42,784 bases of DNA from a virus, in IMG/VR virus record IMGVR_UViG_3300045988_017185; one strand, written 5' to 3'. Below, piece by piece: positions 2,791 to 42,784 of the stretch (the first letter of the stretch is position 1; each line of letters starts with the position of its first letter). The notes below the pieces were generated by a model that was not told where the DNA came from, searched no databases, and saw only the letters and a list, made by a program, of their open reading frames with translations. A program made the position numbers and the translations under genes.

Positions 2791-3669
2791 ATGGCTGGTA
2801 ATTTTGTTGGTGGTATTATTGGTGCGGCTATAGGTACAACTGTTGGTTTAATTGGCTCTATTAAGGGTATCAGAGACACACAGAAAGCAATGAGGAAATC
2901 CTACATTAGACAGATGGAAATCCTCATACAGAACTATAACTATAACCAAAATGCCTTAGATCAAGAAAGTAGGTTTAACCTAGAGTCTGCTAAACAGAAT
3001 CTTTTTAACATAACCTTCAATGGCATTCAGAATAACTCTGCTGTCTTTGCTGCTCAAGGTGAAACAGGTTATGAAGGACGTACAGGACAGCAGATAGCTA
3101 GAGCTATAACTGGACAAGTAGAGAGACGTAGAACTGGAGTAATAGAAAACTATCAACAACAAGATTATCAAATAAGAAGAGAAAGAGATAATCTTTATAT
3201 ACAGACACAAAAGACTGTTGAACAAGCAGAAGATAATTTCAACAATATGCAGACTTCTGATCTTGAAAATGTCTTTAATGTTATGCACACTTCTGCTATG
3301 GCAGGTTACCAAGGCTTTATGATTGGTTCTGGTATTGGTGGTGGCTTTGGTGGTGGCTTTGGTGGTGGTGCAGGTGCAAGTGGTGCCGGTAGTGGTTCAA
3401 TAAATCTTAATGGTCTTGGTTCTAGTGGTGCATTGAGTACAGGTGCATCAGGTGCTTCTAGTGCAGGTTCCTTCTCGTTGTCTGCCGGTGGTGGTGGTAG
3501 TGGGATGTCTTCTGGATGGAGTTGGAATAGAGCAATGCAGTCCTTCAATCAGGTTTACTCACAGCAAAGCTCCATACAGAATATGTTCTCTCAGTTCGGA
3601 GCATTGGGGCAATCTTTAGGTGCCTTGTTTGGTAACACTAGAAACAATAGATACAACTTTATTTACTAA
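2791..3669 (+). CDS. internal virion protein (T7 gp14-like) with a long Gly/Ser/Ala-rich C-terminal half
   Basis: 292-aa ORF. The N-terminal half (RQMEILIQNYNYNQNALDQESRFNLESAKQNL...ENYQQQDYQI) parallels T7 gp14. Its position is between gp12 and the gp15-like gene. Confidence 0.75.
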   Translation: MAGNFVGGIIGAAIGTTVGLIGSIKGIRDTQKAMRKSYIRQMEILIQNYNYNQNALDQESRFNLESAKQNLFNITFNGIQNNSAVFAAQGETGYEGRTGQQIARAITGQVERRRTGVIENYQQQDYQIRRERDNLYIQTQKTVEQAEDNFNNMQTSDLENVFNVMHTSAMAGYQGFMIGSGIGGGFGGGFGGGAGASGAGSGSINLNGLGSSGALSTGASGASSAGSFSLSAGGGGSGMSSGWSWNRAMQSFNQVYSQQSSIQNMFSQFGALGQSLGALFGNTRNNRYNFIY

Positions 3670-9171: not shown

Positions 9172-12081
9172 ATGGCAGATACTATTGCTAATTATACAGG
9201 TAATGGTACTCAGACTGACTTTGTAGTTCCTTTTGACTACCTTAAGAAGAGCTTTGTGCATGTGTATGTGAACAATGGATTGACTCTTCTTACAGGTGGT
9301 GACTATGGAGATACCGGTGCTGACTATTATTTCCTAGATGATACTACAATACGCCTTAAGACTGCCCCTGCTGAAGGTGAAGGTATTGTAGTCAGACGTT
9401 ATACTTCAGCTACAGAACGAATAGTCTCCTTTGAGGATGCTTCTATTCTCAAAGCTACAGACCTTGATACGTCTCAACTTCAGGCATTCCATATTGCTGA
9501 AGAAGCTAGAGATAACGTTAAGGATGCTATGTTAAGAGACGATGAGAGTAACTGGGATGCTCAGAATACTCGTATTGTCAATGTAGCTGACCCTGTAGAT
9601 GACCAAGATGCTATGACTCTTGGTTACTATAAGAAAGATAAACAATCCGTCATAGACTTAAAGAATGAAACTAAAGGGTATCGAGACGAAGCTTTAGGTT
9701 TCAGAAATGAAGCTGAAGAATTCAAAGATACTGCTGAAGGTTACAAAAATGAGGCTGAAGAGTCCAAGAATCTAGCTAAAGACTGGGCTGTCAAGATGGA
9801 TGGTAAAGTAGTCGAAGAAGGCGAAGAGATAGACTACTCTGCCAAATATTGGGCACAGTCTGTAGCAGAGATGGGTGAAGCAGCTAAGGTTGTAGCAGAC
9901 AATATTGATGATGTTAATACTGTAGCAGACAATATTGATGATGTCAATAAGGTTGCAGGCGATCTTGAAGGTACCTTTAAGCCTCCTCAATTCACCGATA
10001 TGGGTAGAGTAGGTACAGGTGAAACTGAAGAGATTGAAGTAACTGGTGGTAACATCAAGACTGTAGCAGATAACATTGAAGATGTCAATAAGGTTGCAGA
10101 TGCTATCGAAGATGGTTCTCTACAAACAGCTATAGATTCTGTACCTGTTACTGTTGAAAATGTCAGATTGTCCAATGAGGCTAAAGATGATGCTGTAGCG
10201 GCTTCTAACAAAGCTAAAGACTGGGCCGTTAAGATTGATGGCAAGGTAACTGATGATGCAGGTCTAGAAGTAGATTATAGCTCTAAGTATTATGCCGATC
10301 AAGCTAAAGCTTCTGCTGAAGAGGCCAATGTCTCTGCTGATGTTGTGACTGAAGCTGTGACTGATGGTGTTTCTCAGATCAACGCTTTGTCTCAGCAAAA
10401 GGTAACTGAGATAACCAATGCAGGTACGGAACAAGTAAACAATGTGAATACCGCTGGTACGACTCAGGTTGAAGCTGTGAATACCGCAGGTTCAACTCAG
10501 GTATCTGCTGTAGAAGACGAAGGTGCTTCTCAGGTATCTGCTGTGACTGCTGAAGGGACTAAGCAAAGTGGCCTTGTTACTGCTGAAGGTACCAATCAGA
10601 TTACCTTGGTAGAACAAAAGGGTAACTCTGTAATTGCTACCGTTAATGCTTCTAAAGATGGTCTGATTGAAGAACTTCAAACTGAAGGTACTACTCAGAT
10701 TGGTCTTATAGAAACAGCAGGTACGACTCAGGTTGGTAATGTCAATACAGCAGGTACGACTCAGGTATCCAATGTAAACGATGCAGGGGATACTCAGGTT
10801 CAAGCTGTAAATACCGCAGGTACAACTCAGATTGCCGCTATAGGTACTGCCGCTGAAGAAGCTATAGCAGACCTTGAGCCTTATGTAGAGAAAGCTCAGG
10901 CATGGGCAGAGAAAACAGATGGCCCTGTTGAAGGTGGTTCTTATAGTGCCAAGTATTGGGCTAATCAGGCATCTAGTGGTCAACTTAATGCTGACTGGAA
11001 TGAGACAGATTCTAGCAATAAGGGGTACATTAAGAATAAACCTGATCTTTCTGTCTATGCTGAAAAGACCTATGTCGATAGTGCTTTAAGTAGTGCTTTG
11101 GTTTATCAGGGTTCTGTAAATACGTATGCTGATCTTCCTGTAGCTTCACAGAAAGTAGGCGATATGTACAACGTAGCTCAGGCTGATAGTTCCCACGGTA
11201 TCAAAGCAGGGGACAATGTAGCTTGGAATGGTAGTGCATGGGATGTTCTAGCGGGTGCTGTTGACTTGTCTGCTTACCTGACTAAATCTAGTGCCGCTTC
11301 TACGTATGCTACGATAGATGATCTTGATGCTACAAATAACAGCATTGATACCCTTGAGACTACTGTAGGTACTAAAGCTAATGATTCTGCTGTAGTTAAA
11401 CTTACAGGAAATCAAACAATAGCTGGTACTAAGACCTTTAGTTCTACCATTGCAGGTAATATCAACGGTACTGCTAGGAATGTCACTGAAAGATACACAA
11501 AGACTTCTAGAGGTGACATAGGGTACGGAGAGAATAATAACTACCTGATTGATAAAGCGGCTTTAGCATTTTGGAATGGTCGTTATAGGGGTACGTCAAG
11601 CAATCTAGAATATTGCAGATATGGTACTATTATAGATACAACCAGAGATCAAACTATAGGTGGTACTAAGACATTCTCTGAGACTATCGTAGGTAGTATC
11701 AATGGTAATGCGGCTACAGCAGATAAATTAAAGACAGCTATAACAATCAATGGTACTTCCTTTAATGGTACTGCAAATATCAACATTAACAATATTGTCT
11801 CTAGAGGACAAGTAACTGCACTTAGTGGTTCTACTAGAGGTTCTATTAAGGGTATTCAGCTTTATGAAGCCTACAATAATGGGTATCCTTATTCTTATGG
11901 TAATGTCATCCACATGAGCGGTGCTAGAGAATCTTATAGTGGTGACAATGAAATCATGTTTACTTGGAATGGTACAGATAGAGTATTCATTAGAAGCCTT
12001 AGAGATACTGCGACTTCTGAGTGGACTGAGTGGAGTGAACTACAGGTAGTTAGAACTGATTATGGGAGAGTAGGGAGTTAA
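9172..12081 (+). CDS. tail fibre protein (T7 gp17-like N-terminal adaptor domain, repeat-rich shaft)
   Basis: 969 aa. The N-terminus (YTGNGTQTDFVVPFDYLKKSFVHVYVNN...RRYTSATERIVSFEDASILKATDLD...AEEARD) matches the T7 gp17 tail-attachment domain. Internal repeats include an 11-aa NTAGTTQV unit and three copies of DWAVK.DGKV..DYSAKYWA. Confidence 0.92.
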   Translation: MADTIANYTGNGTQTDFVVPFDYLKKSFVHVYVNNGLTLLTGGDYGDTGADYYFLDDTTIRLKTAPAEGEGIVVRRYTSATERIVSFEDASILKATDLDTSQLQAFHIAEEARDNVKDAMLRDDESNWDAQNTRIVNVADPVDDQDAMTLGYYKKDKQSVIDLKNETKGYRDEALGFRNEAEEFKDTAEGYKNEAEESKNLAKDWAVKMDGKVVEEGEEIDYSAKYWAQSVAEMGEAAKVVADNIDDVNTVADNIDDVNKVAGDLEGTFKPPQFTDMGRVGTGETEEIEVTGGNIKTVADNIEDVNKVADAIEDGSLQTAIDSVPVTVENVRLSNEAKDDAVAASNKAKDWAVKIDGKVTDDAGLEVDYSSKYYADQAKASAEEANVSADVVTEAVTDGVSQINALSQQKVTEITNAGTEQVNNVNTAGTTQVEAVNTAGSTQVSAVEDEGASQVSAVTAEGTKQSGLVTAEGTNQITLVEQKGNSVIATVNASKDGLIEELQTEGTTQIGLIETAGTTQVGNVNTAGTTQVSNVNDAGDTQVQAVNTAGTTQIAAIGTAAEEAIADLEPYVEKAQAWAEKTDGPVEGGSYSAKYWANQASSGQLNADWNETDSSNKGYIKNKPDLSVYAEKTYVDSALSSALVYQGSVNTYADLPVASQKVGDMYNVAQADSSHGIKAGDNVAWNGSAWDVLAGAVDLSAYLTKSSAASTYATIDDLDATNNSIDTLETTVGTKANDSAVVKLTGNQTIAGTKTFSSTIAGNINGTARNVTERYTKTSRGDIGYGENNNYLIDKAALAFWNGRYRGTSSNLEYCRYGTIIDTTRDQTIGGTKTFSETIVGSINGNAATADKLKTAITINGTSFNGTANININNIVSRGQVTALSGSTRGSIKGIQLYEAYNNGYPYSYGNVIHMSGARESYSGDNEIMFTWNGTDRVFIRSLRDTATSEWTEWSELQVVRTDYGRVGS

Positions 12082-12969: not shown

Positions 12970-13533
12970 ATGATTAAGAAATATACTTATAAAGGAAAAG
13001 AATACACGTCTGTTTACCAATTGAAGAAAGACATTTGGGAACAAGACGGTAAAGCCTTTTCTACTCCTAAGGATGCTTCTGGTTGGGCAATATATGGGGT
13101 GGTCTATCAAGAACTCCCTGACCCTGAGCCAGTAGAACCTTCCTTGGAGGAGGTAAAGCAAACCAAACTAAGTGAACTTGAAAGAAAGTTCCTTAGTTGG
13201 TATGAAAACGACGCTAAGATGATCTCTAGCTTAGGCTATGAGTGTGACTCTGATGCTAGAGCTATGATGGACGTTAATGGTCTGGTTATAGCGGCTGAGT
13301 CTGGAGCTATGACTTATAGTTCTATCTTCATGGATGCCAATAATCAGCCTCATATGGTATCCTTGGAACAACTCAAGACGATACAGCTTGAGATCATTAC
13401 AGCGGGACAATCTGCATATAACGAAAAGTGGACTTATAGAACTGCTATTGAATCTGCTACATCCGTAGAAGAAGTCAAAGGTATCACTATAAGTTTCACT
13501 AAGTGCGACTTTAGTGACAATGACGCATCCTGA
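12970..13533 (+). CDS. hypothetical protein, possibly DUF4376-like (commonly found next to tail fibres)
   Basis: 187-aa ORF with AAGGAG upstream. The C-terminal two thirds (KLSELERKF..WYEN....SSLGYECDSDARAMMDVNGL...) resemble my memory of the DUF4376 pattern. Confidence 0.45.
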   Translation: MIKKYTYKGKEYTSVYQLKKDIWEQDGKAFSTPKDASGWAIYGVVYQELPDPEPVEPSLEEVKQTKLSELERKFLSWYENDAKMISSLGYECDSDARAMMDVNGLVIAAESGAMTYSSIFMDANNQPHMVSLEQLKTIQLEIITAGQSAYNEKWTYRTAIESATSVEEVKGITISFTKCDFSDNDAS

Positions 13534-13765
13534 TTGTTTTCAGGTACTCGTTGCATTAGATCAACTAGTGAATACACTTTTTGGTGGATATGCAGATGAA
13601 ACGGTGTCTAGTCGATCATATAGAGCTTACATTACAGGTAAGCGAAAGTGGACTAGAAATTTAATTAACCTATTATTCTTTTGGCAAGACGATCATTGTA
13701 AGGAGGCGTATGAAAGTGAACTTAATAGGTTACAGTACCCTCCTGAATTTAGAGAGGATGATTAA
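13520..13765 (+). CDS. hypothetical small protein
   Basis: ORF of 81-83 aa (GTG 13514 or ATG 13520) that overlaps the upstream stop. Composition looks coding. No function recognised. Confidence 0.55.
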   Translation: MTHPDCFQVLVALDQLVNTLFGGYADETVSSRSYRAYITGKRKWTRNLINLLFFWQDDHCKEAYESELNRLQYPPEFREDD

Positions 13766-13771
13766 CAAAAG

Positions 13772-14209
13772 ATGCTAAATAAAGACCTAATATTTAGCTT
13801 GATGTCAATAATGGGAGACGAAATGCTATTTCCTGATTGGGCTAATGCTCAAGAGATTCGGTTACGTTCAGACGGTTGGGTTGATGATACCTATACAGTT
13901 ACGCAGGATTCTTTCCTTATAGGGCTATATAGCGAATCAAGCGAAATTAGTCCCGCTGGTGTGAGTATTAACGGAAAGAGGCTATTTAACGATAATTCTG
14001 GTGCAGGATCTCATAACTATTGTCCATGTTTTTATTGTACTAAAGGAACAGTTTTAAAAAATAATAGCAAGACTAACTTTGCATATTTTAACATAATTCC
14101 TTTAGTTAAGTCTGGGGGGGGGCTTAAATACCCTGTAGTCTTCTTTAGGTCTTACCAATTGAATAATATGGTTTGTATCAATAGAATTAAGTTTAAGAAG
14201 AGAGCTTAA
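13772..14209 (+). CDS. hypothetical protein, paralog 1 of a tandem triplet; contains a G9 tract at 14114-14122
   Basis: 145-aa ORF. Shares the N-terminal signature (M.NKDLIFSLMS..GDEMLFPDW), a YTVTQD block and a C.KGT block with the next two ORFs. Confidence 0.65.
   Translation: MLNKDLIFSLMSIMGDEMLFPDWANAQEIRLRSDGWVDDTYTVTQDSFLIGLYSESSEISPAGVSINGKRLFNDNSGAGSHNYCPCFYCTKGTVLKNNSKTNFAYFNIIPLVKSGGGLKYPVVFFRSYQLNNMVCINRIKFKKRA
14114..14122 (+). repeat. G9 homopolymer tract (encodes GGG in paralog 1)
   Basis: Nine consecutive G counted in tctgggggggggctt. Confidence 0.95.
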
Positions 14210-14212
14210 TAT

Positions 14213-14536
14213 ATGTTTGATAAAGACATAATGTTATTCTCATTGGTTGGACTTACAGGAGACGATGATATGCTTTTTCCTGATTTCTCTAGAAAACTAG
14301 CTAATAACGTTTTTAACTATACTGCTACAGAAGATGGTTACCTTGTGGTTAATTATCTTTCAAAATATGAGTCAGGTAGTGTTTCTGTGGATGGTGTTAT
14401 AGTAACAAAAAGGCTAAATATTAATAACTCTTCTACCCTGAGTATCCTATATATGTATGTACCTAAAGGTTCAGTTATAAAGGGAGATGGTGATATGAGA
14501 TTTACAGTATATGGGTTAAAGAAGGGGGGGGGTTAG
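14213..14536 (+). CDS. hypothetical protein, paralog 2 of the tandem triplet; ends in a G9 tract at 14524-14532
   Basis: 107-aa ORF (MFDKDIMLFSL..GDDDMLFPDF...YTATEDGYL...VPKGSV...KKGGG-stop). Confidence 0.65.
   Translation: MFDKDIMLFSLVGLTGDDDMLFPDFSRKLANNVFNYTATEDGYLVVNYLSKYESGSVSVDGVIVTKRLNINNSSTLSILYMYVPKGSVIKGDGDMRFTVYGLKKGGG
14524..14532 (+). repeat. G9 homopolymer tract (encodes the last Gly codons of paralog 2, immediately before TAG)
   Basis: Nine consecutive G counted in aagaaggggggggggttag (a single G after aagaa completes the Lys codon AAG; the nine-G tract follows). Confidence 0.95.
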
Positions 14537-14590
14537 AGTCAGCTCTTATCATATTGTCTCATTCAAAGAAAAATCAAAGAAGGAGAACTT

Positions 14591-14952
14591 ATGTCATTAA
14601 ATAAGGAAATGCTCTTTGGTTTATTATCTTTTGGAGGTGACAATATGAAATGGCCTATAGTGGATAGTACTGGTACTGAGAAAACGAAAATATAGGGCGC
14701 AATACTACATACACACTTGAAAAAGATGTTATGTTGACGTATTGGGGTTTCGATAATTCCAGCAGGCTAAATGCTAATATAACAATAGAATTTCCTGATG
14801 GCTCTAGTATAACTAAAGAATGGAGATATATTCCTAATCTACCTTGTTTATGCCCTAAAGGTACAAAATTCATAACTACTAACGTTAACTATCAGGTTAA
14901 TCTTAGAATAGATTACTATGACATTTTAGGTTATTTATCTTATAACCCTTGA
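14591..14952 (+). pseudogene. paralog 3 of the tandem triplet, split over two reading frames (N-part 14591-14695, C-part open from 14680 to 14952)
   Basis: Strong SD (AAGGAG) before ATG 14591. The N-part reads MSLNKEMLFGLLSFGGDNMKWP. The C-part, in the frame reached by adding one nucleotide, reads YTLEKDVMLTYW...LCPKGTKF and aligns with paralogs 1 and 2. The frames overlap in GAGAAAACGAAAATA. Confidence 0.6.
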
Positions 14953-15093: not shown

Positions 15094-15306
15094 ATGTATT
15101 CTTTTGAACATAAAGATACAGAACATCCTATGAGAGACATGAGGAATATCCTTGAAGATACAGCTCATAGAGCAAAAGAGTGCCTTGAGCATCTTCTGGA
15201 TGAAACTTGTTGAGACTCTCAAGATTTGGATGATGTAAAGGACTGCATAGAAATTCTGTGTGGTATCCGTAAGTTTAACTATATGATGGAACATAAAGGA
15301 GAATAA
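15094..15306 (+). other. 70-codon reading frame interrupted by one in-frame TGA (15211-15213); either a 39-aa ORF, a readthrough product or a pseudogene
   Basis: Translation is MYSFEHKDTEHPMRDMRNILEDTAHRAKECLEHLLDETC-TGA-DSQDLDDVKDCIEILCGIRKFNYMMEHKGE-TAA. Both halves look coding. There is no clear SD. Confidence 0.3.
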
Positions 15307-15308
15307 AA

Positions 15309-16001
15309 ATGGCTGAATATGCGTCTAAAGGTGTAGCAGGTACGGCTCTTGGTTTGGGTATTGCCGGTACTGTTGGACTTGTGAATCAGCTTGGTAACTG
15401 TGGAGGCTGCGGTAATGGTCTCCTTGGTGGTATCTTTGGTGGCAATAACTGTTGTAATCGTGGTGTAGGTGTAGGTGGCATGGCAGAGGTTCAGTATGTC
15501 TCTGCTTTGCAAGCTGAAAATGGTCAACTGAAGGCTGAAAACTACAGCGATCGTACCTCCTTGGAAGCCTATAAGCAGACTGTGGCTGACAATAAGGAAC
15601 TTCGTACTGAAATGTATGCCTTCATTAAACCCTTGTCTGAAGAAGCGGCTAACAACAGAGTGACTATCGCTAGACTTGAAGAGCAAATTAAGTGTGCCGG
15701 TGAAAAGGCTGAACTTCGTGAACAGGTTATCCAAGGTCTGATTCGTGAACAAGGTCAGGCACTTAATGGAAAGATTGATCAAGTTGCTTCTGCTGCCAAG
15801 TGCTGCTGTGAAGCTAATTCAACGGCTATTGCAAGTCTCCAGGCTCTGGTTTGTAAGATTACTCAGACTAGTGTTCCTATTTCTGCTATCTGCCCGCAGC
15901 CGATGCCTCAGTATAACTCTTGGACGGCACCCACGGGTACTCCTACTCAGGTCAATGTGTCTGGCACCGTGAATACTCGTAGTGCTACTTGCGTTGGCTA
16001 A
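15309..16001 (+). CDS. hypothetical Gly/Cys-rich coiled-coil protein (orphan)
   Basis: 230-aa ORF with AAAGGAG SD. It has an N-terminal Gly-zipper-like hydrophobic stretch, CGGCG/NNCC motifs, a central heptad-like region and a Cys-rich C-terminus (KCCCE, LVCK, ICPQP, ATCVG). Arg codons are mostly CGT, as in the capsid gene. Confidence 0.8.
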   Translation: MAEYASKGVAGTALGLGIAGTVGLVNQLGNCGGCGNGLLGGIFGGNNCCNRGVGVGGMAEVQYVSALQAENGQLKAENYSDRTSLEAYKQTVADNKELRTEMYAFIKPLSEEAANNRVTIARLEEQIKCAGEKAELREQVIQGLIREQGQALNGKIDQVASAAKCCCEANSTAIASLQALVCKITQTSVPISAICPQPMPQYNSWTAPTGTPTQVNVSGTVNTRSATCVG

Positions 16002-16002
16002 T

Positions 16003-16023
16003 GATTTAATCTGACTGTAAGAT
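16003..16023 (+). promoter_or_regulatory. phage RNAP promoter (GATTTAATCTGACTGTAAGAT)
   Basis: Member of the repeated ATCTGACTGTAAGA family. Intergenic. Confidence 0.7.
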
Positions 16024-28129: not shown

Positions 28130-28516
28130 ATGTTTGAAATTCTGTGTGATATAAAGAAGGGTGATTATGTGTATGCTAAAGTGCCTAATCACCCACACGC
28201 AACTAAGAATGGATATGTTCTGAAACACCGTGTGGTTGTTGAAAATTATTTAGGGCGTGTTCTTGAATCTTGGGAAGTTGTTCATCATAAAGATGGAAAC
28301 AAGCTAAACAATGATATTTCTAATTTAGAAGTATTATCAAACCAAGATCATGCAAGAATGCACTCTAGTAAAGGAAGAAAATATATAACCCTTGTTTGTC
28401 CAGAGTGTGGTAAGGAGTTTGTAAGAGAACTTAGACAAGCATATAAGGGTAATAAGAGATGTTTCTGTTCTAGAAAATGTAATGGGAAATTTTATAAGCA
28501 TCTGACGGTAGCATAA
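28130..28516 (+). CDS. HNH homing-type endonuclease
   Basis: HRVVVENYLGR...VVHHKDGNKLNNDISNLEVLSNQDHARMH (HNH motif) plus a C-terminal CPECG...C.C..KC zinc-finger-like region. Confidence 0.85.
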   Translation: MFEILCDIKKGDYVYAKVPNHPHATKNGYVLKHRVVVENYLGRVLESWEVVHHKDGNKLNNDISNLEVLSNQDHARMHSSKGRKYITLVCPECGKEFVRELRQAYKGNKRCFCSRKCNGKFYKHLTVA

Positions 28517-28577
28517 TTGGAGATGCACCAATCTTCTAAATTGGAGAATGTGGGTTCGAGTCCCACCCGTCAGACCA
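28502..28577 (+). tRNA. tRNA-Arg (anticodon UCU), CCA encoded
   Basis: Hand-folded cloverleaf. Acceptor CTGACGG/CCGTCAG. D arm GCAT-AATTGGAG-ATGC. Anticodon arm CCAAT-CTTCTAA-ATTGG. T arm GTGGG-TTCGAGT-CCCAC. Discriminator A, then CCA. 76 nt. Confidence 0.9.
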
Positions 28578-29850: not shown

Positions 29851-29972
29851 AGGCGAGTTGCTAATGTTGGTCTTGGAGTTGGTCTTATAAACCAATAAAC
29901 AGAAAGAAAGCGCTGTCTAGATAAGGCAGGTCTTATGACTGAACGTGGGTTCGATTCCCACCTCGCCTACCA
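29851..29972 (+). tRNA. aberrant 122-nt tRNA-like element (acceptor, D arm, UAU anticodon arm and T arm present; ~49-nt insertion before the T arm)
   Basis: Acceptor AGGCGAG pairs 7/7 with CTCGCCT, followed by A-CCA. T arm GTGGG-TTCGATT-CCCAC. Anticodon arm TTGGT-CTTATAA-ACCAA. 49 nt lie between the anticodon arm and the T arm, against the usual 4-5 (or 13-21 in class II tRNAs). Confidence 0.5.
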
Positions 29973-29994
29973 AACAAACACAAGGAGAAATACT

Positions 29995-31268: not shown

Positions 31269-31342
31269 TGGGGTATCGTTCAAAGGTAGGACAACGGATT
31301 TTGATTCCGTCAATCTTGGTTCGATTCCAAGTACCCCTGCCA
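31269..31342 (+). tRNA. tRNA-Gln (anticodon UUG), CCA encoded
   Basis: Hand-folded cloverleaf. TGGGGTA/TACCCCT acceptor with an unpaired U1-U72 end. D arm GTTC-AAAGGTA-GGAC. Anticodon arm ACGGA-TTTTGAT-TCCGT. T arm CTTGG-TTCGATT-CCAAG. G-CCA. The 5' UGGGGUA and 3' UACCCC.GCCA ends resemble E. coli tRNA-Gln. Confidence 0.88.
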
Positions 31343-42398: not shown

Positions 42399-42784
42399 TT
42401 GATTATAACTCCGCAAAATGAATTAGATGCAGTCAATGAAATCCTAAGTGCTATAGGCTCTTCTCCTGTTTCTAGCCTTGAAGACGAAAACAATGTTGAT
42501 GTCATCAATGCTAAAAGAATTCTTAAAGGTGTATCCAAGGAAATACAAGCAAGAGGGTGGTTCTTTAATACTCTTGAAATGATACATCTTGACCCTGAAG
42601 ATAACCGGTATGGTAAATTTAATGTTCCTTGTCCTAATAGTTATCTCAGGTTTGAAGCTCCAACCTATAAGTTAATTCGAAGAGACGGGTATTTCTTTGA
42701 TGTGTATAGTCAAACCAATATATTCCCTGAAGGTTTGGACATTAAGATACTTGTCAAGGAACTTCCGTTCAATGAGCTTCCAGA
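42399..42784 (+). CDS. tail tubular protein A (T7 gp11-like), N-terminal part; continues into 78-306 via the circular junction
   Basis: TTG start 6 nt after AGGAGA. The frame stays open to the window end and is continuous with bases 1-306. Confidence 0.88.
   Translation, partial: MIITPQNELDAVNEILSAIGSSPVSSLEDENNVDVINAKRILKGVSKEIQARGWFFNTLEMIHLDPEDNRYGKFNVPCPNSYLRFEAPTYKLIRRDGYFFDVYSQTNIFPEGLDIKILVKELPFNELP
42708..42784. repeat. 77-bp terminal overlap, identical to 1-77
   Basis: See the feature at 1-77. Confidence 0.97.

Follow-up and report, generated by a model that had tools for sequence, protein, structure and literature searches.

The window analysed here, a single strand of 42,784 nucleotides (nt) from the IMG/VR virus record IMGVR_UViG_3300045988_017185, carries an array of small-protein cassettes downstream of its tail-fibre genes. 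The cassette junctions appear, from comparison of related sequences, to share a module not described before, which links a run of G residues (polyG), a stop codon, a spacer that repeats the next leader imperfectly in inverted orientation, and a hairpin enclosing the ribosome-binding site (RBS) of the next cassette. The feature is real, conserved and variable in length, and a regulatory mechanism built on it is plausible. Under the favoured explanation, to which we give about even credence, the G-runs are DNA-level contingency tracts that set stop versus read-through, and hence translational coupling to the next cassette.

A first-pass annotation of this DNA had placed two runs of nine G residues (G9) at the homologous 3' ends of two diverged paralogs, and both were found at those positions and in those open reading frames (ORFs; Table 1). 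No other homopolymer in the window exceeds 7 nt, and the G runs next in length measure 6 nt; a first-order Markov model predicts 0.056 runs of G9 or longer. The triplet GGG makes up 8.2% of glycine codons and 4 of the 125 codons within glycine runs; the glycine run at 3337-3371, for example, is encoded by GGT/GGC. The codon register also differs between the two tracts (TCT GGG GGG GGG CTT in tract 1 versus AAG AAG GGG GGG GGT TAG in tract 2), which indicates that the nucleotide run is conserved rather than a Gly3 motif. These data bear out the earlier suggestion that the tract is maintained at the nucleotide level. An amino-acid requirement for Gly3 is ruled out by the differing registers, the rarity of GGG, and polyG-free homologs that end in ..PLMKGE, ..IPLV or ..GLKPSS.

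Simulated gain or loss of a single G reproduced every alternative tail that the annotation had predicted for either tract. For tract 1, G8 gives GGGLNTL-stop, G9 gives a 28-amino-acid (aa) tail, and G10 gives GGGA-stop; for tract 2, G8 gives ..GGVRVSSYHIVSFKEKSKKENLCH-stop, G9 gives GGG-stop, and G10 gives ..GGGLESALIILSHSKKNQRRRTYVIK-stop. Contingency loci are recognized by an uninterrupted G/C run of at least ~7-8 nt in a coding region, as seen here (two G9 in the window, G7-G11 in relatives), and by a product that is altered by a 1-nt change, which in the simulation switches between an immediate stop and read-through. Recoding of the G-run as GGAGGTGGC would lock the tract.

Evidence that the runs vary in length came from related phages. 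A paralog profile search of Logan, ENA and JGI metagenome assemblies returned 57 family proteins, many of them on 42-46-kb contigs from human gut samples, and the DNA of 15 related loci was compared. In these loci an array comprises 2-4 cassettes, whose bodies are highly diverse. Wherever another cassette lies downstream, the cassette before it carries a 3' G-run of 5-11 nt (mostly 7-9, sometimes interrupted), and a G-run was never found at the last cassette of an array among the 15 loci. The G-runs are essentially the sole long homopolymers in these loci. The annotation had named absence of the tract from homologs in related phages among the observations that would count against it; instead, the tract lies at the 3' cassette end in every related phage examined and is present at each cassette-cassette junction. 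Among the 57 proteins, all three frames are found downstream of ..IPLVKSGG(G), ..LKKGG(G) or ..RKLGG(G), and the frame varies by contig. The protein continues into the first of three spacer types (S1) as (L/H/Y)K(Y/F)PVV..NNMVCIN..KFKKRA-stop or GGGA-stop, into the second (S2) as GGG-stop, LESALIILSH..RRTYVIK-stop or VRVSSYHIV..KKENLCH-stop, and into the third (S3) as GGG-stop, LKSYYCLLKAQPKVLFFVTGE-stop or (V/A)KVILLSSK..RRIM-stop.

The closest comparison is between two loci, L005 (ENA ERZ919456 / SRR769527) and L006 (ERZ1741149), that differ at 2 of 7,390 positions: the second junction run is G8 in the former and G9 in the latter, and there is one single-nucleotide polymorphism. The G8 state was also recovered in the Logan assembly of SRR769527, in ERZ1741147 and in OBDD01003639, so that two different assemblers gave G8 for run SRR769527. 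Run lengths also agree across samples (L019 = L020, L001 = L012). On this one event, and as judged from assembled sequence, the G-run is demonstrated to be a length-polymorphic site between near-identical genomes. The conserved location, the length variation and the use of all frames together form the comparative signature of a slipped-strand hot spot, from which we infer that the runs are hypermutable by slippage.

The run marks the boundary of a larger conserved unit. Alignments of the three spacer types showed that conservation starts exactly at the G-run and spans ~150 nt. The sequence 5' of the run is diverged, whereas from the first G there is near-identity through the spacer, the Shine-Dalgarno (SD) sequence, the ATG and ~50 nt of the next leader, followed again by divergence. 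Every spacer has a stop codon 1-4 nt past the run in one frame (GGT TAG; GCT TAA or GCA TAA; GGT TAA), and every spacer is an imperfect inverted copy of the leader of the following cassette.

Spacer and leader pair to form a hairpin of 40-50 bp, within which lie the RBS and ATG of the next cassette. At junction 1, positions 14138-14159 pair with 14242-14263 and positions 14171-14181 with 14217-14227; the fold has an energy of -52.9 kcal/mol (z -4.4), and 0 of 200 shuffled sequences folded equally well. The fold at junction 2 has an energy of -35.4 kcal/mol (z -2.9), equalled by 1 of 200 shuffles. RNAalifold consensus energies were -48.4 kcal/mol for S1 (7 sequences), -31.8 for S2 (10 sequences) and -44.6 for S3 (4 sequences). 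Arm sequences differ among the three module types, yet in every type they are complementary to the leader of that type, and this match provides the main evidence for selection on structure. Moreover, one-sided changes in the arms are nearly all wobble-compatible; for S2, 19 alignment cells retain the pair and 3 break it.

The structure is specific to one strand. Sense RNA folds 11-23 kcal/mol better than antisense at 13 of 13 junctions, suggesting an mRNA-level structure that depends on G-U pairs. A DNA cruciform or recombination hairpin was considered separately and is disfavoured by the same antisense deficit of 11-23 kcal/mol at 13/13 junctions. No comparable structure was found at the start of cassette 1 (z -0.85) or at the starts of polyG-free paralogs in a jumbo phage. 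A search of Rfam gave no matching family, the single sub-threshold hit being to a miRNA (microRNA) precursor on the junction 2 hairpin only.

Table 1. Coordinates of the junction modules, the cassettes and neighbouring genes in the window (position 1 is its first letter)
Feature	Start	End	Strand	Remarks
polyG tract 1 (G9)	14114	14122	+	within ORF 13772..14209, in register as three GGG codons; read-through state
polyG tract 2 (G9)	14524	14532	+	within ORF 14213..14536, out of register (aaG GGG GGG GGt); stop TAG 14534-14536 immediately after
spacer S1	14123	14212	+	two frames stop near-immediately (GCT TAA; TAG 14134-14136); open frame ends at TAA 14207-14209, 3 nt before next ATG
spacer S2	14533	14590	+	other two frames open, ending 10 or 14 nt past next ATG; SD AAGGAG 14581-14586
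junction-1 mRNA hairpin	14138	14263	+	5' arm in spacer; 3' arm is codons 2-17 of cassette 2; weak SD and ATG 14213 in apical part
junction-2 mRNA hairpin	14549	14648	+	arms 14549-14590 and 14607-14648; loop starts with ATG 14591 of cassette 3
cassette 1 (paralog 1), 145 aa as assembled	13772	14209	+	core of ~117 aa ending ..IPLVKSGGG, then 28-aa read-through tail (..VKSGGGLKYP..)
cassette 2 (paralog 2), 107 aa	14213	14536	+	ends ..LKKGGG-stop
cassette 3 (paralog 3), last in array	14591	14952	+	without polyG; split into 14591..14695 and 14731..14952
gp16-like internal virion protein	5916	9161		
tail fibre, 969 aa	9172	12081		T7 tail-fibre N-terminal domain (PF03906)
second fibre-like protein, 291 aa	12090	12965		
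DUF4376 protein	12970	13533		
884-aa ORF	22771	25425		

The placement of the stop codons gives two classes of outcome at each junction. Read-through frames end close to the next ATG, at -3 for S1, at -4 or +1 (an ATGA overlap) for S3, and at +10 or +14 for S2, whereas stop-state frames terminate 54-88 nt upstream of it. S1 junctions are in their one read-through frame at 6 of 8 loci, versus one-third expected (binomial P ~0.02, ignoring relatedness), and the same tail frame is found at the protein level in 10 of ~17 clusters. The cost of opening the RBS was computed over -18..+13, with 33 other gene starts in the window as the reference. This cost is 16.1 kcal/mol for cassette 2 and 15.8 kcal/mol for cassette 3, compared with 9.7 +/- 3.9 kcal/mol for the other starts. 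If the 5' arm is held single-stranded, the cost drops to 11.3 (cassette 2) and 7.8 kcal/mol (cassette 3); with a ribosome footprint at the stop-state termination site, it stays at 16 kcal/mol. Structure-mediated coupling calls for a downstream RBS that is held in a structure with an upstream-translated arm, and for a stop within a few nucleotides of the start. In silico, the RBS is so held, with an arm that is translated only in read-through frames, and the stops lie at -3, -4, +1, +10 and +14.

Under the proposed mechanism, the G9 runs would be hypermutable, their length shifting by slipped-strand mispairing during phage DNA replication, and the length would fix the reading frame in which a ribosome enters the spacer. 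A ribosome would meet, in order, the polyG, the stop 1-4 nt further on in one frame, the inverted-copy spacer, the next SD and ATG, and the leader. In the stop frame, ribosomes would terminate right past ..GGG, the hairpin would remain closed, and the next RBS would be poorly accessible. In the read-through frame or frames, the 5' arm would be translated, with termination between -4 and +14 nt of the next ATG; the hairpin would thereby be melted, permitting termination-reinitiation and more translation of the next cassette. The C-terminal tails would be mainly by-products of this stop/read-through relay. Built on the observed polymorphism, module boundary, hairpins, strand specificity and stop geometry, the mechanism would make translation of each following cassette dependent on the tract before it. 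In the window itself, the G9 of junction 1 gives the read-through state and is followed by an intact cassette 2; the G9 of junction 2 gives the stop state, and the cassette after it, cassette 3, is frameshifted.

Several observations weigh against this mechanism. No double-compensatory substitutions were found within a module type in the S1, S2 or S3 alignments, because the modules are too conserved, and that conservation could, on the sequence comparison, reflect recent recombinational spread. That the read-through frames are open is no more than suggestive of a departure from chance (P = 0.10, 0.25 and ~0.035 in dinucleotide shuffles). RBS occlusion is high but not unique, with cassettes 2 and 3 ranking 4 and 5 of 35, and S2 and S3 have strong SDs close to the apex of the hairpin, from which ribosomes might initiate independently. 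The tract differs in one near-identical pair only, while three other such pairs have identical runs. Finally, in one locus (L106) an interruption of the run (GGGGAGGGG) locks it in the stop state, but both the hairpin and the cassette that follows are intact, and intact cassettes also lie downstream of stop-state junctions in L019 and L025. Intact cassettes in this position suggest that the effect, if any, may be quantitative, or that the lock in L106 is recent.

An alternative is that the tract is a non-adaptive mutational hot spot, with the G-run forming part of a recombination linker that shuffles cassettes, or the base of the hairpin, and with drift at the C terminus being tolerated. The exact coincidence of the conservation boundary with the G-run is consistent with this explanation, as is the mosaic arrangement, in which one cassette body can be found with different leaders and spacers through shuffling. 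Interrupted tracts occur in either state across many lineages, stop-state junctions precede intact cassettes, and some of the folds show the G-run paired to pyrimidine stretches close by. A recombination linker, however, needs no homopolymer, yet three sequence-unrelated module types (S1, S2 and S3) each start with one. Moreover, the GGG codon is disfavoured, G7-G11 runs persist without decay across diverged genomes, and the S1 frame is used non-randomly (6/8 versus 1/3 expected). We therefore consider a purely non-adaptive origin unlikely.

A second alternative is that the switch generates phase-variable C-terminal isoforms, in which case the output would be the 22-31-aa hydrophobic/basic tail on the cassette protein, acting for example in assembly or localisation, and the hairpin would be incidental. 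All of the tail variants do occur naturally as predicted proteins, the S1 tail frame is over-represented at loci and among protein clusters alike, and a 3-nt in-frame indel in the S1 tail (INR versus INNE) maintains the frame. While these data fit a function for the peptide, where the S1 tail varies, most substitutions affect codon positions 1 and 2, with about one in ten at position 3, and the remainder of the tail is nucleotide-invariant. This pattern indicates that the S1 tail evolves under the constraints of an RNA arm rather than those of a peptide. In addition, complementarity to the next leader dictates the tail sequence, two quite different tails are both used in S2 and in S3, and polyG-free homologs end at the position equivalent to ..PLVK(GE), implying that the fold is complete without a tail. 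Selection for the isoforms themselves is thus rather improbable. The slipped-strand switch put forward in the annotation stands in one part and not in the other: the G5-G11 length variation, the occupation of all three frames and the near-identical G8/G9 pair support a slipped-strand hot spot, whereas the emphasis on isoform tails is not supported, the sequence that follows the tract being the 5' arm of the hairpin.

Programmed ribosomal frameshifting would instead shift a fixed -1 or +1 fraction of ribosomes in each infection, with no change in the DNA, the G GGG GGG sequence being slippery and the stop or the hairpin stimulating the shift. The run formally matches X XXY YYZ, tract 2 is followed at once by a stop in frame, there is a stable hairpin further on, and T7 gene 10A/10B is a precedent for a C-terminal extension of this kind. 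On the other hand, all-G heptamers shift poorly in tested systems. The zero frame is not conserved, with relatives occupying all three frames at differing run lengths, and the main stem begins 13-16 nt past the run rather than 5-9 nt; for these two reasons programmed frameshifting is disfavoured, and we regard it as quite improbable. As to slippage by the transcribing polymerase, which the annotation had also raised, it is unlikely on G runs. Lastly, homopolymers are error-prone and the contigs that differ have low coverage (~6-7x by their names), but sequencing or assembly error, also raised in the annotation, is a highly implausible source of the run lengths, since the 77-nt exact overlap between the ends of the window is typical of short-read de Bruijn assembly, two assemblers gave G8 for SRR769527, >15 independent assemblies drawn from different studies place runs at the same point of the junction with lengths reproducible between samples, and errors cannot create a conserved position, stop codon and hairpin.

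The cassette proteins themselves have no match in Pfam, PHROG, PADLOC or PDB sequences. Cassettes 1 and 2 are true paralogs, with 36% identity, a common leader and a common C-terminal strand. An AlphaFold2 (AF2) model of the cassette 1 core has an N-terminal helix and a beta-sandwich (predicted local distance difference test score, pLDDT, 80.6), for which Foldseek returned only weak resemblances to cupin, C1q-like and tail-fibre-like jelly rolls (E > 0.01). The cassettes are extremely diverse and follow the fibre genes, which suggests that they may act in host recognition. The polyG tract supplies the last 3 codons of the core, and the full core is retained in every tract state. Distant homologs form a tandem array, without polyG, in a 295-kb T4-like phage scaffold and end at equivalent positions (..PLMKGE-stop, ..IPLV-stop and ..GLKPSS-stop), suggesting that the protein core is complete at ..GGG. 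A ubiquitin-like "GG" precursor was also considered and is ruled out, as the AF2 model is a helix with a beta-sandwich and not a beta-grasp, and the distant homologs lack the GG. The T4-like jumbo-phage array (L015 9158-12413; ENA ERZ16268165 scaffold_88) comprises 5-6 diverged family members with an MLFPDW motif, has neither polyG nor junction hairpins, and adjoins a TnpB/Cas12f1-like gene.

The frame of cassette 3 is broken by a 1-nt deletion relative to an intact homolog, P0010 (..TGTEKTENIGRNTTY..), changing ACGGAAAAT to ACGAAAAT. The shift lies in the region ~14675-14700 and leaves ORFs of 34 aa and 73 aa, and an identical split is present in a JGI sister contig (P0049). Cassette 3, behind its stop-state junction, is probably a pseudogene.

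The region past the array is prone to rearrangement in relatives (L018 4226-4360; L021 4401-4598; L006 4797-4877; protein P0055). In L018, an S2 spacer is fused directly onto the MSALISLSKL.. gene. A 230-aa Gly/Cys-rich protein encoded at 15309..16001 of the window is truncated in some relatives and fused to a cassette N terminus in P0055. Between the array and this gene, a small ORF at 15094-15306 (MYSFEHKDTEH..) ends at an in-frame TGA (..LLDETC-stop), the downstream frame being otherwise intact, and its homologs in L003 and L014 have Trp at that position (..ESCWDSQDLDD.., 70 aa). Since 7 of 29 genes terminate normally at TGA, the TGA of this ORF is a nonsense mutation or a read-through site. 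Homing-endonuclease-like genes (HNH_3/NUMOD4, LAGLIDADG) lie beside or within the NrdD region of relatives (L005 7136-7390, L018 6832-7306, L002 7172-7762), and the NrdD ORF of L002 is apparently interrupted.

Strong local RNA structure was also found just upstream of the array, at 13410-13589 (-55.8 kcal/mol, z -4.7). Within it lie the last part of the DUF4376 gene and the overlapping start (GTG 13514 / ATG 13520) of an 82-aa gene; no other start in the genome has an RBS as costly to open (20.8 kcal/mol). This structure may be another site of structure-mediated coupling.

The source of the window is a T7-like podovirus from the human gut with 40% guanine-cytosine content. Positions 1-77 are identical to 42708-42784, and this exact 77-nt terminal overlap indicates a circularly closed assembly of a complete genome of 42,707 bp, consistent with k=77 short-read de Bruijn assembly. 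The genome encodes NrdD and a large terminase. No close relatives were found in INPHARED (megablast, blastn and tblastn), and no relative of the 291-aa fibre among 185k genomes. NrdD is 62-65% identical to proteins of Oxalobacter, gut Alphaproteobacteria metagenome-assembled genomes and others. The phage genes use SD sequences, which speaks against a Bacteroidota host; gut Proteobacteria are candidate hosts. A ~21-nt motif with the consensus AATAAAATCTGACTGTAAGAA is repeated in 9 copies (at 16003, 21102, 21137, 22617, 25421, 27674, 29795, 37186 and 37220) and is probably a family of promoters for a phage RNA polymerase. A phage RNA-polymerase promoter beginning at the G-run is ruled out, AATAAAATCTGACTGTAAGAA being unlike the tract regions, with one copy at 16003, just past the array. 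The genome also encodes tRNA-Arg(TCT) at 28502-28577 and tRNA-Gln(TTG) at 31269-31342; a third T-arm-like repeat lies at 29948-29975, where no tRNA was called. Within the 969-aa tail-fibre gene, in-frame tandem repeats of 30 nt and 33 nt are found at 9856-10111 and 10417-10834.

If each junction gates the next cassette through its polyG, the array would form a "phase-variable translational relay", with a single lineage yielding progeny that carry differing cassette combinations as combinatorial bet-hedging for host recognition. This wider proposal is tentative, and we hold it possible rather than probable. Such a relay may be mechanistically distinct from diversity-generating retroelements, invertible segments and the ON/OFF tracts of Campylobacter phages. 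If correct, it introduces a new logic, in which a homopolymer acts on translation of the neighbouring gene via a conserved RNA structure at each junction of an array. There are also practical consequences: gene callers mis-annotate the cassettes as 100-146-aa variants of one protein, and assemblies collapse a potentially heterogeneous population into a single state.

No paper describing a polyG/hairpin system at cassette junctions was found in the literature searched, in which documented phage polyG hypermutation is limited to the Campylobacter Fletcherviruses. These phages carry hypermutable polyG tracts (Sorensen et al. 2021, Cell Rep 35:109214, cited in PMC10579305 and PMC10877375). The two systems have in common G runs inside genes of the phage host-recognition region, where a length change shifts the frame and diversifies the phage population. 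With regard to receptor binding, the cassettes described here follow the tail-fibre genes, and their C1q-like and tail-fibre Foldseek matches are weak. The differences are that Fletcherviruses are large Campylobacter myoviruses, whereas the system in the window belongs to a T7-like gut podovirus with unrelated proteins; that the run here is at the extreme 3' end, so that the core is never truncated and there is no ON/OFF switching of the gene itself; and that the run here is linked to an adjacent stop and an RBS-enclosing hairpin, repeated at every array junction. If the favoured mechanism is true, the principle of polyG hypermutation extends to an uncultured T7-like clade that is recurrent in human gut metagenomes from many studies.

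Bacterial contingency loci provide a second parallel, with polyG/C phase variation in Campylobacter, Helicobacter, Neisseria and Bordetella (PMC8355987, PMC1891110). As in those loci, slipped-strand mispairing at a G/C run is proposed here, lengths are polymorphic among close relatives, and interruptions lock the state. Classical contingency loci switch the tract-bearing gene or alter promoter spacing, whereas the switch proposed here would act on how much the downstream gene is translated.

Translational coupling that relies on mRNA structure and on termination-reinitiation operates in the coat-replicase/lysis region of the RNA phage MS2 and at operon ATGA overlaps. The cassette junctions resemble these in having a downstream start inside a structure with upstream-translated sequence, and an upstream stop within a few nucleotides of the ATG. 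One important difference is that MS2 and ATGA coupling is constitutive, while here a mutable homopolymer would decide whether ribosomes enter the structure. Within the T7-like lineage, the -1 ribosomal shift of T7 gene 10A/10B gives a C-terminal extension at a fixed ratio with no DNA polymorphism, and the T7 RNase III sites are intergenic, without using the coding leader of the next gene as an arm. The array shares with these T7 elements alternative C-terminal extensions near a stop and long imperfect hairpins between late genes, and the long imperfect duplex at the junctions is a plausible RNase III substrate. It is distinguished from gene 10A/10B by a run length that differs in the DNA among relatives, and from the RNase III sites by a hairpin in which one arm is coding sequence.

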